This document shows, piece after piece, positions 2,147-51,817 of a stretch of DNA of 64,000 nt. Below the pieces are notes generated by a model. It worked only from the letters and a program-made list of their open reading frames with translations. It did not search any database and was not told the DNA's origin. This DNA comes from Escherichia coli. Its GTDB lineage: Bacteria > Pseudomonadota > Gammaproteobacteria > Enterobacterales > Enterobacteriaceae. Location: the NCBI RefSeq assembly GCF_003334355.1, contig NZ_QOWP01000006.1; one strand, written 5' to 3'. Every line of letters starts with the position of its first letter. The stretch's first letter is position 1. Both the position numbers and the translations under genes were made by a program.

Positions 2147-3196
2147 ATGAAAATCAGTCGGGAAACACTCCACCAGCTAATTGAGAATAAACTCTGCCAG
2201 GCTGGGTTAAAACGTGAGCACGCTGCAACCGTGGCTGAAGTATTGGTTTACGCCGATGCCAGAGGGATCCACTCTCATGGCGCGGTGCGCGTGGAATACT
2301 ACGCGGAACGCATTTCAAAAGGCGGCACCAACCGCGAACCGGAGTTTCGTCTTGAGGAAACCGGGCCGTGCTCGGCAATTTTACATGCCGACAATGCCGC
2401 CGGACAGGTCGCGGCGAAAATGGGTATGGAACATGCCATCAAAACCGCCCAGCAAAATGGCGTTGCGGTGGTCGGTATCAGCCGGATGGGTCACAGCGGC
2501 GCAATCTCTTATTTTGTGCAGCAGGCAGCCCGCGCCGGATTCATTGGCATTTCGATGTGCCAGTCCGATCCAATGGTGGTGCCGTTTGGCGGCGCGGAAA
2601 TTTACTACGGTACTAACCCCCTGGCCTTTGCCGCGCCGGGAGAAGGCGACGAGATCCTTACCTTTGATATGGCGACTACCGTACAGGCATGGGGAAAAGT
2701 GCTCGACGCCCGCTCGCGTAATATGTCTATCCCGGATACCTGGGCGGTCGATAAAAACGGTGTACCAACAACCGATCCGTTCGCGGTACATGCTCTGCTC
2801 CCCGCCGCCGGGCCAAAAGGGTATGGCCTGATGATGATGATTGACGTCCTCTCAGGCGTCTTACTCGGCTTACCGTTCGGGCGACAGGTTAGTTCGATGT
2901 ATGACGATTTACACGCAGGGCGTAATTTGGGGCAATTACATATAGTTATTAATCCGAACTTTTTCTCCTCCAGCGAATTATTCCGTCAACATCTTAGCCA
3001 GACCATGCGCGAATTAAATGCCATTACCCCCGCGCCCGGTTTTAACCAAGTTTATTATCCCGGACAGGATCAGGATATTAAACAACGCAAAGCCGCCGTC
3101 GAAGGCATCGAAATTGTTGATGATATTTACCAGTATTTAATTTCCGACGCGCTTTATAACACGTCATACGAAACGAAAAATCCCTTTGCGCAATAA
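2147..3196 (+). CDS. allD: Ureidoglycolate dehydrogenase AllD (349 aa)
   Basis: 349-aa ORF, N-terminus MKISRETLHQLIENKLCQAGL...; first gene of allDC-allE operon. Confidence 0.9.
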   Translation: MKISRETLHQLIENKLCQAGLKREHAATVAEVLVYADARGIHSHGAVRVEYYAERISKGGTNREPEFRLEETGPCSAILHADNAAGQVAAKMGMEHAIKTAQQNGVAVVGISRMGHSGAISYFVQQAARAGFIGISMCQSDPMVVPFGGAEIYYGTNPLAFAAPGEGDEILTFDMATTVQAWGKVLDARSRNMSIPDTWAVDKNGVPTTDPFAVHALLPAAGPKGYGLMMMIDVLSGVLLGLPFGRQVSSMYDDLHAGRNLGQLHIVINPNFFSSSELFRQHLSQTMRELNAITPAPGFNQVYYPGQDQDIKQRKAAVEGIEIVDDIYQYLISDALYNTSYETKNPFAQ

Positions 3197-4463: not shown

Positions 4464-5249
4464 ATGGGATATTTAAATAACGTCACCGGTTACCGCGATG
4501 ATTTACTGGCTAACCGTGCGATTGTGAAACACGGTAATTTCGCACTGTTAACCCCGGACGGTCTGGTAAAAAATATTATTCCGGGCTTTGAAAATTGTGA
4601 CGCGACAATCCTCTCCACGCCAAAGCTGGGTGCCTCTTTTGTTGATTATCTGGTCACACTGCATCAAAACGGCGGCAACCAACAGGGCTTCGGTGGCGAA
4701 GGCATTGAAACGTTCCTGTATGTGATCACTGGAAATATCACTGCCAAAGCCGAAGGCAAAACATTTGCCTTAAGCGAAGGTGGCTATCTTTATTGCCCGC
4801 CAGGCTCCTTAATGACGTTTGTTAACGCCCAGGCCGAAGACAGCCAAATCTTTTTATATAAGCGCCGCTATGTTCCGGTAGAAGGCCATGCACCGTGGCT
4901 GGTTTCTGGCAATGCCAGCGAACTGGAACGCATTCACTATGAAGGTATGGATGATGTGATCCTGCTGGATTTTCTGCCCAAAGAGTTAGGTTTTGATATG
5001 AACATGCATATCCTCTCTTTTGCACCAGGTGCCAGCCATGGTTATATCGAAACACATGTTCAGGAACACGGTGCCTATATTCTTTCCGGTCAGGGGGTTT
5101 ATAACCTCGACAATAACTGGATCCCGGTGAAAAAAGGCGATTACATCTTTATGGGCGCTTATTCTTTACAGGCTGGTTATGGTGTAGGGCGTGGTGAAGC
5201 GTTCAGCTATATTTACTCGAAAGATTGCAACCGCGACGTAGAGATTTAA
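4464..5249 (+). CDS. allE: (S)-ureidoglycine aminohydrolase AllE/YlbA (261 aa, cupin)
   Basis: 261-aa ORF directly after allC; matches recalled YlbA. Confidence 0.85.
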   Translation: MGYLNNVTGYRDDLLANRAIVKHGNFALLTPDGLVKNIIPGFENCDATILSTPKLGASFVDYLVTLHQNGGNQQGFGGEGIETFLYVITGNITAKAEGKTFALSEGGYLYCPPGSLMTFVNAQAEDSQIFLYKRRYVPVEGHAPWLVSGNASELERIHYEGMDDVILLDFLPKELGFDMNMHILSFAPGASHGYIETHVQEHGAYILSGQGVYNLDNNWIPVKKGDYIFMGAYSLQAGYGVGRGEAFSYIYSKDCNRDVEI

Positions 5250-5291
5250 GTCATACCACTCGCCTGATTATTTTTAGCTATGTTGGATTTT

Positions 5292-5318
5292 GCCACGGTT
5301 TATACCGTGGCTTTTTTT
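5292..5318 (+). terminator. Rho-independent terminator of allDCE operon
   Basis: GCCACGGT-TTAT-ACCGTGGC hairpin followed by TTTTTTT. Confidence 0.7.
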
Positions 5319-5326
5319 GTAACATT

Positions 5327-5431
5327 GCCTGATGCGCTTCGCTTATCAGGCCTACATGATCTCTGCAATATATAGAATTTGCGCGATTTTCAGGAAGGAT
5401 ATAGTACTCATGCCGCATCCGGCATGAGTAC
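5327..5431. repeat. REP element plus a 12-bp-arm perfect palindrome between allE and glxK
   Basis: GCCTGATGCGCTTCGCTTATCAGGCCTAC REP-like unit; AGTACTCATGCC-GCATCC-GGCATGAGTACT palindrome at 5402-5431. Confidence 0.6.
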
Positions 5432-5476
5432 TGCGCTCTTATACGAAATAAATAGCATCCGCTTTAAAGGCAAGAG

Positions 5477-6622
5477 TCAGTTTTTAATTCCCTGACCTAT
5501 TTTAATGGCGCAGGCAATATTTCGCGCGCTGTTGAAGAGATTGATTTCACCGCTGGCGAGTACTTCGGCTAAAGGTGCCAGACGTGGCAAAATGCTGAAT
5601 ACCGCATCAATGCCATACTGGTGCACCACTTCCACGCCATCACCCAATACGCCAGCAATCCCAATCACCGGTACATTAAACTGCTTCGCCACCGACGCCA
5701 CACCCAGCGGCGCTTTACCGCCTGCCGTTTGCGAGTCGATGCGCCCTTCCCCGGTAATCACCAGTGCTGCGCCCTGCACTGCCTGCGCAAGATTGACCGC
5801 ATTCAACACAATCTCAATACCTGGTTTAATATCCGCATTGAGAAATACCGCCGCCGCAATACCCATACCGCCCGCAGCGCCGCCGCCCGCCATCTGGCAG
5901 ACGTTGATTTCAGTTTGCTGTTGTAAAACACGGGCGTAATTTTGCAGCCCCTGTTCCAGCTCTTCGACCATTTCCGGCGTTGCCCCTTTTTGCGGGCCAA
6001 ACACCGCCGCCGCGCCGCGTGCCCCTACCAGCGGGTTATCAACGTCACATGCTACTTCAATATGGCAATTCGCCAGACGCGGATCGCATTCATCCATCTC
6101 AATGCTTGCCACGCGCGCTAAATTACCGCCGTTAGCCACCAGCACCTGACCGTCGGCATCAAGGAAACGCACACCGAGCGCCTGCGCCATGCCCATACCG
6201 CCGTCGACCGTCGCACTGCCGCCAATGCCGAGAATAATATGGCGAATGCCGTTATCCAGCGCATGACGAATTAACTCCCCCGTACCAAAACTGGAGGCCA
6301 GCAACGGATTACGCTTTTCAGGCGCGACCAGCATCAGGCCACTTGCTGCCGCCATCTCAATCACCGCCGTTTTCCCGTCGCCGGTAAGGCCATAAAAAGC
6401 ATTCACTGTTTCGCCCATCGGCCCGCAGACTTCAAGCGTCACGATGTTGCCGCCCGTCGCGGCGACCATCGCATCCACCGTTCCTTCGCCGCCATCCGCT
6501 ATCGGCAAACAGATATAGTGCGCATCGGGAAAGAGGGTCGAAAACCCGGCTTTAATTGCCTGGCAACATTTTTCTGCACTTAAGCTCTCTTTAAAAGAGT
6601 CTGGCGCAATGACAATCTTCAT
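5477..6622 (-). CDS. glxK: Glycerate 2-kinase GlxK (381 aa)
   Basis: [30 protein letters not shown]...; start trimmed to the Met that gives K-12 length. Confidence 0.9.
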
Positions 6623-6643
6623 TATCAATCCTTTTTCAACAAA

Positions 6644-18378: not shown

Positions 18379-18441
18379 TGGGCGGTATTCTGAAACGGCG
18401 ATTGTCGTGAGAACAGAATGGTTGCACCAGAATACAGATAT

Positions 18442-18478
18442 AAAAAAACCGACATGACAGTCGGTTTTTTTATTTTTT
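18442..18478. terminator. Bidirectional rho-independent terminator (selU on +; candidate sRNA on -)
   Basis: AAAAAAA-ACCGAC-ATGACA-GTCGGT-TTTTTTTATTTTTT; A-tract before and T-tract after the hairpin. Confidence 0.75.
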
Positions 18479-18530
18479 CCGCCCAAGACTTGGTGGTTCC
18501 GGGCAGAAATGAAACAGTCCTCATCTAGCA
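18442..18530 (-). ncRNA. Candidate antitoxin sRNA (~88 nt); its 5' end is antisense to a 16-nt element that recurs in the toxin leader
   Basis: Minus-strand promoter (-35 TTGAAT, 17-bp spacer, -10 TATAAT) puts the start near 18529-18533; transcript begins with the reverse complement of CAGTCCTCATCTAGCA (18515-18530) and ends at the bidirectional terminator. Confidence 0.4.
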
Positions 18531-18944: not shown

Positions 18945-18976
18945 TCATATTTATTGCCAAAATGCACACTGTTCAT

Positions 18977-19074
<98 letters not shown>

Positions 19075-19090
19075 AATCTAACACCTGTCA

Positions 19091-22782: not shown

Positions 22783-23581
22783 AGCAACGGAGATCCTGAC
22801 AGGTAAAGTTATGCAAAAATCGGTCTTAATTACCGGATGTTCCAGTGGAATTGGCCTGGAAAGCGCGCTCGAATTAAAACGCCAGGGTTTTCATGTGCTG
22901 GCAGGTTGCCGGAAACCGGATGATGTTGAGCGTATGAACAGCATGGGATTTACCGGCGTGTTGATCGATCTGGATTCGCCAGAAAGTGTTGATCGCGCAG
23001 CCGACGAAGTGATCGCCCTGACCGATAATTGTCTGTATGGGATCTTTAACAATGCCGGATTCGGCATGTATGGCCCCCTTTCCACCATCAGCCGTGCGCA
23101 GATGGAACAGCAGTTTTCCGCCAACTTTTTCGGCGCACACCAGCTCACCATGCGCCTGTTACCCGCGATGTTACCGCACGGTGAAGGGCGTATTGTGATG
23201 ACATCATCGGTGATGGGATTAATCTCCACGCCGGGTCGTGGCGCTTACGCGGCCAGTAAATATGCGCTGGAGGCGTGGTCAGACGCACTGCGCATGGAGC
23301 TGCGCCACAGCGGAATTAAAGTCAGCCTGATCGAACCCGGTCCCATTCGTACTCGCTTCACCGACAACGTCAACCAGACGCAAAGTGATAAACCAGTCGA
23401 AAATCCCGGCATCGCCGCCCGCTTTACGTTGGGACCGGAAGCGGTGGTGGACAAAGTACGCCATGCTTTTATTAGCGAGAAGCCGAAGATGCGCTATCCG
23501 GTAACGCTGGTGACCTGGGCAGTAATGGTGCTCAAGCGCCTGCTGCCGGGGCGCGTGATGGACAAAATATTGCAGGGGTGA
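22772..23581 (+). CDS. ybbO: Short-chain dehydrogenase/reductase YbbO (269 aa)
   Basis: TGCSSGIG cofactor motif and YAASK active-site motif. Confidence 0.88.
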   Translation: MTHKATEILTGKVMQKSVLITGCSSGIGLESALELKRQGFHVLAGCRKPDDVERMNSMGFTGVLIDLDSPESVDRAADEVIALTDNCLYGIFNNAGFGMYGPLSTISRAQMEQQFSANFFGAHQLTMRLLPAMLPHGEGRIVMTSSVMGLISTPGRGAYAASKYALEAWSDALRMELRHSGIKVSLIEPGPIRTRFTDNVNQTQSDKPVENPGIAARFTLGPEAVVDKVRHAFISEKPKMRYPVTLVTWAVMVLKRLLPGRVMDKILQG

Positions 23582-24526: not shown

Positions 24527-24552
24527 GCCGGATGCGATGCTGCGCATCCGGC
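24527..24552. terminator. Hairpin between convergent cnoX and fetB (likely bidirectional terminator)
   Basis: GCCGGATGCG-ATGCTG-CGCATCCGGC palindrome. Confidence 0.5.
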
Positions 24553-35222: not shown

Positions 35223-35250
35223 GTGCCGGATGCAAACATCCGGCACTTTC
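35223..35250. terminator. Hairpin between convergent ybaK and ushA
   Basis: GTGCCGGATG-CAAA-CATCCGGCAC followed by TTTCGG. Confidence 0.55.
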
Positions 35251-44679: not shown

Positions 44680-44716
44680 AAAGAAAAATGCCGGATGACA
44701 CAAAGGTCATCCGGCA
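44680..44716 (-). terminator. htpG rho-independent terminator
   Basis: Minus-strand hairpin TGCCGGATGAC/GTCATCCGGCA (11 bp) followed by U-tract (plus-strand A-run 44681-44688). Confidence 0.7.
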
Positions 44717-44721
44717 TGACA

Positions 44722-51606: not shown

Positions 51607-51659
51607 GAAATAAATGGGGCCGCTAAATGTCCCCTAAGATTGTGGGCAAACGCAAAACT

Positions 51660-51758
51660 GCCTGATGCGCTACGCTTATCAGGCCTACACCGCTCCTGCA
51701 ATATATTGAATTCTTGCGGTTTCGTAGGCCGGATAAGGCGGTCACGCCGCATCCGGCA
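51660..51758. repeat. REP pair between convergent ybaM and mscK
   Basis: GCCTGATGCGCTACGCTTATCAGGCCTAC and GTAGGCCGGATAAGGCGGTCACGCCGCATCCGGCA. Confidence 0.8.
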
Positions 51759-51817
51759 TGAACAACGCGCACTTTGTCAGTAATCTCGGGGCAACTAAAT
51801 GTCGCCCCCTTTGGTTA

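Follow-up and report, generated by a model that had tools for sequence, protein, structure and literature searches.

The perfect palindrome between allE and glxK of Escherichia coli is a locus-specific relic of a decayed REP/BIME-1 element

Genes, terminators and a palindrome in the allE-glxK spacer

The palindrome described here is located between two convergent genes, allE (4464-5249, + strand) and glxK (5477-6628, − strand), in a window of 64 kb of E. coli DNA (the whole stretch that was analysed, to which all window positions refer). The gene coordinates come from the RefSeq annotation of the identical stretch in strain 214-4 and from that of K-12 (97% identical over the stretch), and they agree with the location proposed in an earlier note on this DNA. 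The same note had reported the perfect dyad AGTACTCATGCCGCATCCGGCATGAGTACT at positions 5402-5431, with 12-bp arms and a 6-nt loop. The dyad is present and perfect, but it lies one base further to the right (5403-5432), and the bases G5415 and C5420 pair as well, thereby generating two arms of 13 bp (5403-5415 and 5420-5432; 100% complementary according to the repeat finder; no strand assigned) separated by a loop of only 4 nt (5416-5419). In the glxK-sense RNA (− strand), the dyad reads AGUACUCAUGCCG-GAUG-CGGCAUGAGUACU. It lies between the stop codons of both genes and begins 45 nt past that of glxK on the − strand, i.e. it had been correctly placed in the glxK 3' UTR.

The dyad is real and not a chance match. 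First, its sequence was matched in none of 100 dinucleotide shuffles. Second, only one perfect inverted repeat of the 64-kb window exceeds it in length, and we observed 11 such repeats with arms of at least 10 bp there, versus 0-3 in each of 20 shuffles. Its fold energy is −23.6 kcal/mol as − strand RNA and −22.9 kcal/mol as + strand RNA (z about −6), and the minimum-energy fold of the 5385-5437 region is the 13-bp dyad hairpin itself (−23.6 kcal/mol, as compared to −15.1 kcal/mol for the canonical y REP of yhaC-rnpB). No other copy of the dyad occurs inside the window when up to three mismatches are allowed.

Other palindromes of the window are worth mentioning. The longest perfect inverted repeat (18440-18473; 14-bp arms ATAAAAAAACCGAC...GTCGGTTTTTTTAT with A/T runs on both sides) overlaps an Rfam AgrB match (18440-18528, − strand) and looks like a bidirectional terminator. 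Furthermore, perfect palindromes derived from REPs recur at 44688-44717, 35223-35246 and 24527-24552 (arms of 12, 10 and 10 bp, respectively), with the REP head GCCGGATG/CATCCGGC.

On the + strand, the dyad is located beyond the strong intrinsic terminator of allE (5292-5318, + strand; GCCACGGTTTATACCGTGGC followed by T7), which is separate from it and forms the left neighbor of the repeat element described in the next section. The dyad is not followed by a T-run, as judged from both the sequence and a terminator scan, in agreement with the earlier statement that it has no U-tract on either strand. On the − strand, the intrinsic-terminator scan was blank, and none of its + strand sites falls at the dyad. 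The relic of a glxK intrinsic-terminator hairpin was recognized at 5440-5460 (− strand) through alignments with K-12 and with the short form of the spacer; its U-tract is lost, and its stem, intact in K-12, carries three substitutions in the window. In the long form of the spacer, to which the window belongs, the glxK 3' UTR comprises, in that order, the stable U-less hairpin (dyad), a z1 REP and the antisense of the allE terminator. A 46-aa open reading frame (5278-5418, − strand) that starts in the dyad loop was dismissed, for it runs through REP sequence and is absent from the short-form genomes.

The hairpin downstream of allE, TTTAGCTATGTTGGATTTT-GCCACGG-loop-CCGTGGC-TTTTTTT (5273-5318, + strand), was found after allE at 20 loci, 31-190 nt from the stop codon, in Escherichia, Citrobacter, Klebsiella, Raoultella, Buttiauxella, Izhakiella and others, with an invariant stem and a variable loop. 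It looks like an allE 3'-UTR sRNA or terminator, because of its U-tract and of the conserved upstream stretch on the plus strand. The Rfam family STnc480 matches there on the minus strand (5256-5322; 87.6 bits), and the strand of this family may merit checking. Our literature search on STnc480, and on the REP annotation of glxK, returned nothing.

A single BIME-1 with a degenerate y-type REP

Throughout its length, the 5326-5440 region is colinear with the canonical BIME-1 elements of three places (local BLAST and multiple alignment), namely those of yhaC-rnpB (82.6% identity over 115 nt), window 51659-51774 (77.8%) and window 18973-19077 (79.2%). A BIME-1 associates a z1 REP with a y REP in inverse orientation, through a long conserved L linker that often harbors an IHF site, and occurs in single copy (PMC3333891). 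Similarly, the allE-glxK spacer of the window holds one BIME-1 unit and no tandem array.

The REP beside which the dyad had been noticed is confirmed at 5327-5355 (+ strand). It is a z1-type REP in the iREP orientation, GCCTGATGCGCTTCGCTTATCAGGCCTAC, as defined by the alignment and by the published REP definition (PMC3333891). It is near-intact, with one substitution relative to the three canonical BIME-1 copies, and has kept its CTAC at 5352-5355. It is followed by the long (L) linker (5356-5390; no strand assigned), which aligns with the CTGCAATATATTGAATTTGCG...TTTT stretch found in the canonical linkers. The IHF consensus of this linker is weakened by a T>A change (TATATAGAAT): the canonical copies match the consensus WATCAANNNNTTR with zero or one mismatch, whereas the allE-glxK copy has no match to it at one mismatch or fewer.

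The next part is a degenerate y-type REP, CAGGAAGGATATAGTACTCATGCCGCATCCGGCA (5391-5424, + strand; alignment with the BIME-1 copies). Its GTAG is reduced to CAG (5391-5393), one base being missing, and its foot GCCGG is turned into GAAGG by two C>A changes, which break the canonical foot pairing GCCGGAT/ATCCGGC; this y REP does not fold as the canonical imperfect palindrome. Its head is intact, the sequence TCATGCCGGATGCGGC being identical at 16 of 16 bases to the REPs at window 18973 and 51762, and a base-by-base hand count gave 29 identical bases out of 34 with the y REP of rhaD-rhaA. The last part (5425-5441, + strand) is a truncated remnant of the BIME-1 right extension, which reads TGAGTACTGCGCTCTTA here, as aligned to the consensus TGAACAACGCGCACTTTGTCAG... 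of the three canonical copies; the orthologous element of E. whittamii retains AAACAACACGCACGTTGTCAGCAATCTGAAGCAG in this extension. The first 8 bases of the remnant form the outer right arm of the dyad. The left arm of the dyad thus corresponds to the interior of the y REP, its loop and inner right arm to the REP head, and the five to eight bases at its right end to the flank of the element.

Together, these data show that the dyad is a locus-specific, decayed REP/BIME-1 relic and not a new kind of signal. The earlier description of it as not a canonical REP stands for its fold and its uniqueness, but it had overlooked that the dyad is the degenerate y-type partner of the adjacent REP. As for the reading as a whole, namely that the dyad represents the y-type REP, now decayed, of one BIME-1 element, that its two arms have changed in concert and that its transcript plays the generic role of a REP, we consider that it likely holds.

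Other REPs are recognizable in the dyad. Its 16-nt core ATGCCGCATCCGGCAT matches the REP heads at window 18975, 33102, 33203, 40341 and 51744. Over both strands, it has nine matches versus 0.08 expected, of which the dyad and a non-REP site at 23052 account for two each. The y REP located between rhaD and rhaA, GTAGGCCGGATAAGGCACTCATGCCGCATCCGGCA, is identical to dyad positions 4-22 (19 of the 30 dyad bases), a degenerate REP located between ycjW and ompG, GGATAAAGTACTCGTGCCGCATCCGGCA, matches positions 1-22 with one mismatch, and the yhaC-rnpB BIME-1 matches positions 6-28. The site at 23052-23067, ATGCCGGATTCGGCAT, is a small palindrome that resembles a REP head with no REP sequence around it, a resemblance that is probably due to chance.

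For binding and cleavage in vitro, the REP transposase TnpA-REP needs two features of the canonical REPs, namely the 2-nt mismatch in the stem of their imperfect palindrome and the GTAG on its 5' side (PMC3333891). Because both features are required, the y REP of the allE-glxK copy is presumably no longer a substrate of TnpA-REP, and this copy is presumably immobile.

We found no Rfam family for the dyad, either in the region at a permissive threshold or in the whole window at the gathering threshold. A match to ES036 (CssrF), listed as an "sRNA" (5348-5390, − strand; 38.1 bits for a gathering score of 37.6), coincides with the BIME-1 L linker; hence, this Rfam family matches repeat sequence here. 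The match to BTnc201 (27.7 bits for a gathering score of 105) was attributed to chance.

Spacer dimorphism and the making of a perfect palindrome

In a set of 5,426 complete E. coli genomes, 2,077 contain an exact word of at least 28 nt of the 30-mer, at a median of one place each, and all the places inspected were at allE-glxK. A sensitive BLAST extended the full-length dyad to 2,368 of these 5,426 genomes, again at the single allE-glxK locus, the other E. coli loci giving only partial matches to ordinary REPs. Consequently, the possibility raised earlier, that the dyad is a common REP variant found at many loci, proved right with regard to its derivation from a REP, but not with regard to the variant itself, which is unique to allE-glxK in the 5,426 genomes. 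Among 2,078 exact dyad matches, one belongs to a plasmid record, and a single genome contains the dyad twice. In E. coli EC0026B_R4, an isolate of laboratory origin (NZ_OX460316.1, 201-257), exactly 19 central dyad bases are missing (CATGCCGCATCCGGCATGA), leaving AGTACTGTACT, a gap that may be a palindrome-tip deletion or an assembly artefact at the hairpin.

The allE-glxK spacer exists in two forms. The long form (227 bp) occurs in about 2,360 genomes, including K-12, BL21, O157:H7, E24377A and 042, while the short form (128 bp, i.e. 99 bp less) occurs in the remaining genomes (O111:H8 and many others). The short form is devoid of the adjacent REP, the dyad and all the sequence between them; the E. 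coli genomes without the element number about 3,060. On the − strand, the short form presents GGATGCGATTTATTTCGCATCT followed by TTTTTTACCT, which scores as a glxK intrinsic terminator, whereas the scan found no glxK terminator-like site left in the long-form alleles, in which the repeat element stands in place of the U-tract of this terminator. The difference between the two forms is a replacement (about 118 nt for 20 nt) rather than a clean insertion. We also considered a two-insertion reading, in which MAFFT pairs AAATTCAGGTAAAAAAAG of the short form with ATTTTCAGGAAGGATAT of the long form, but this pairing is probably spurious, the long-form stretch being homologous to the foot of the BIME-1 y REP.

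The outgroups conflict as to the ancestral form. In Citrobacter, the element is absent, there is no such spacer and the glxK stop codon abuts the allE terminator, whereas two other Escherichia representatives, E. whittamii and Escherichia sp. E1V33, possess the BIME-1. In addition, the spacer of E. coli E69 combines the left part of the short form with a remnant of the BIME-1 extension. As judged from these sequences, the dimorphism could result either from the insertion of a BIME-1 into a terminator, or from the loss of the BIME-1 together with the gain of a terminator. The E69 spacer (CP089930.1, about 2870-3010) also displays two glxK terminator-like hairpins around an insert that bears a BoxC-like motif, CCCCTCGCCCCTTTGGGGAGAGGGGG, together with what is left of the right extension of the BIME-1. 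The allE-glxK spacer is a hotspot of repeat turnover.

How the palindrome became perfect can be traced by comparing alleles and repeat copies. In the register of the dyad, other y REPs pair at 5-9 of the 13 positions and BIME-1 copies at 8-9, while the allE-glxK alleles pair at 12-13. The 8-9 pairs of the BIME-1 copies reflect a quasi-palindrome that already exists between the REP interior TTCACGCCG and the head with its flank CGGCATGAA. As compared to the BIME-1 consensus, the allele of the window differs at nine arm positions. Three changes repair mismatches (5411 C>T, 5405 C>T and 5431 A>C), and three pairs are changed on both sides (5407/5428, T-A to C-G; 5406/5429, G-C to A-T; and 5403/5432, G-C to A-T). 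Starting from the BIME-1 consensus, nine random substitutions would yield 13 pairs out of 13 with P = 1.5e-6 and at least 12 pairs with P = 1.9e-5, both values presupposing independent substitutions.

Intermediates are present in natural alleles. First, Escherichia sp. E1V33 and E. coli SM107 have kept G-C at 5406/5429, in an allele that also bears the pairing-disrupting C5414A. Second, 042, E24377A and HS, which represent the main allele of a 299-genome class (95-99% identical to the window over 76 nt), have A.C at 5406/5429. Third, the K-12 and O157:H7 type (about 1,800 genomes) has G.T at 5403/5432. Fourth, the fully paired allele of the window occurs in 223 genomes, including BL21 derivatives. 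It is worth noting that the intermediate at 5406/5429 is a G.U wobble in the glxK-sense RNA, whereas that at 5403/5432 forms a G.U wobble in the antisense RNA alone and leaves a C.A mismatch in the glxK-sense RNA. The orthologous element of E. whittamii, which has decayed differently, has a consensus-like flank (GGCATAAACAACACGCAC...), thereby supporting the conversion of the E. coli flank. Covariation across the five distinct alleles was not significant, 203 of 500 shuffles of these few sequences scoring as high, and the dyad has 4 variable sites in 30 nt, a conservation no better than that of its flanks.

We conclude from these comparisons that the two arms of the dyad have evolved in concert. 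We propose the following scenario. The BIME-1 sits where the short allele has the U-tract of the glxK terminator, and the y REPs of BIME-1 elements carry a built-in second quasi-palindrome, formed by their interior with their head and flank. At allE-glxK, this alternative hairpin became perfect while the GTAG and the foot stem decayed, both arms changing together, most economically by intramolecular template switching during replication. Template switching is known to perfect inverted repeats in E. coli, and a role of this mechanism in the maintenance of short, perfect inverted repeats of proteobacteria has been put forward (PMC5941160). We regard it as the probable mechanism because clustered, two-sided changes that perfect a quasi-palindrome are its signature, even though a selection for pairing would also account for the present sequences.

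Such a selection would be expected in the case of an adaptive replacement, in which, after the loss of the U-tract to the BIME-1, selection at the RNA level perfected and lengthened the hairpin as a new stabiliser of the glxK 3' end. We view this explanation as rather unlikely. The old terminator stem has indeed decayed (three substitutions) in the window/042 lineage while the dyad stays perfect there, but one allele bears the disrupting C5414A, and neither the conservation nor the covariation described above distinguishes the dyad as a selected structure. Likewise, G5403A extends the stem from 12 to 13 bp, and the 5406/5429 pair has a G.U wobble of the glxK-sense strand as its intermediate, but the wobble of the K-12 type at 5403/5432 exists only on the opposite strand, so that no strand is favored. 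Finally, the dyad exceeds a normal y REP in stability by 8 kcal/mol, yet the element is missing from more than half of the E. coli genomes. The wobbles on opposite strands, the C5414A allele and the non-significant covariation, in this small sample, make us lean towards a strand-symmetric process at the DNA level, such as template switching, and against selection at the RNA level.

Possible role in the glxK RNA and comparison with known systems

Once transcribed, the dyad would act like any REP, i.e. as a very stable U-less stem-loop in the glxK 3' UTR. This stem-loop should stall 3'-5' exonucleases, thereby marking the steady-state 3' end of glxK, while the long-form glxK transcript would have to terminate further downstream, probably through Rho. 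For the Rho-dependent transcripts of E. coli, 3' ends are both defined and protected by stable U-less stem-loops, with 24% of them at REPs (PMC6061677), and terminators can change class merely by the gain or the loss of downstream uridines (PMC6061677). By analogy, the effect of the dyad is likely generic, namely the protection of glxK 3' ends by a stable U-less stem-loop. In the long-form strains, the dyad is the best candidate for the mature glxK 3' end, because it would be the first strong barrier met by a returning 3' exonuclease. The glxK gene is absent from the E. coli 3'-end tables that were searched (Adams 2021 supplements), presumably owing to its low expression in the absence of glyoxylate or allantoin.

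A more ambitious proposal, which we put forward only tentatively, is that the BIME-1 displaced the U-tract, and that the dead REP was reshaped, by template switching and/or selection, into a stronger hairpin that defines the glxK 3' end under Rho. The ancestral, intermediate and derived states would then all be segregating in E. coli, as a case of natural terminator turnover.

The other functions that can be envisaged for the dyad fare worse. The earlier note had suggested an RNase III or RNase E target, or a protein-binding site, and neither suggestion is supported. More than half of the E. coli genomes do without the element. A specific processing of the glxK 3' UTR by RNase III or RNase E at the dyad appears very improbable: what speaks for it is only that the hairpin is stable and flanked by AU-rich single strands in the glxK-sense RNA, but RNase III substrates typically span roughly two helical turns, well above the 13-bp stem of the dyad, and the element is a REP derivative that varies in presence among strains and has no matching RNA family in Rfam. 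We give hardly any credit to an operator bound by a dimeric protein that would regulate the convergent all/glx genes: in spite of the perfect dyad symmetry, the site stands between the two stop codons, downstream of either gene, its REP ancestry accounts for its sequence, its half-sites drift between alleles, and it is absent from the short-form E. coli genomes and from Citrobacter. A mere coincidence, one REP of hundreds having by chance a matching flank, is just as hard to believe, since, although 8 bp of pairing are inherent to y REPs with the CTCATGCC interior and a TGA flank, three pairs were changed on both sides and the above probability for 13 of 13 pairs stays below 1e-3 when multiplied by several hundred copies. 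The K-12 genome has about 584 REPs (PMC3333891).

We therefore retain the decayed y-type REP of a BIME-1 as our preferred reading. With this conspicuous palindrome of a well-studied genome explained as a REP/BIME relic, it should not be mistaken for a regulatory site; in this respect, its import beyond annotation is small. It also offers a clean natural case of an imperfect, repeat-borne palindrome perfected by coordinated changes of its arms, with the intermediates still in the population. Furthermore, a canonical terminator is present at allE-glxK in some strains and absent in others, over thousands of sequenced strains, which makes this locus an inexpensive natural experiment for comparing the intrinsic and the Rho-dependent formation of 3' ends.

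The allE-glxK copy can be compared with five known systems. First, it resembles the BIME-1 elements (RIP-type mosaics) in the order, orientation and spacing of its parts, in its single copy and in the shared right extension, with 78-83% identity over about 115 nt. It differs from them in that its y REP lacks the GTAG and the foot stem, its IHF consensus is weaker, its extension is truncated and its y REP folds in another register. Second, it resembles the y-type REPs, with an identical head and an interior, CTCATGCC, that matches the rhaD-rhaA subfamily, but it forms a perfect palindrome in another register, without the GTAG. Third, similarly to the quasi-palindrome template-switch hotspots of thyA and rpsL, it shows clustered, two-sided substitutions by which an imperfect inverted repeat is made perfect (PMC5941160); the mutations of these hotspots were observed in the laboratory, whereas the allE-glxK event is deduced from natural alleles and repeat copies. 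Fourth, like an intrinsic (Rho-independent) terminator, it provides a stable hairpin just downstream of a gene, but the dyad has no U-tract on either strand, and the long forms, unlike the short form, have no glxK terminator in the scan. Fifth, it is comparable to the protective 3'-end stem-loops of Rho-dependent transcripts, as a stable, GC-rich, REP-derived hairpin located past a stop codon and devoid of a U-tract; the 3' ends and the Rho dependence of these stem-loops are experimental, whereas the dyad is likened to them on the basis of its sequence and predicted fold.
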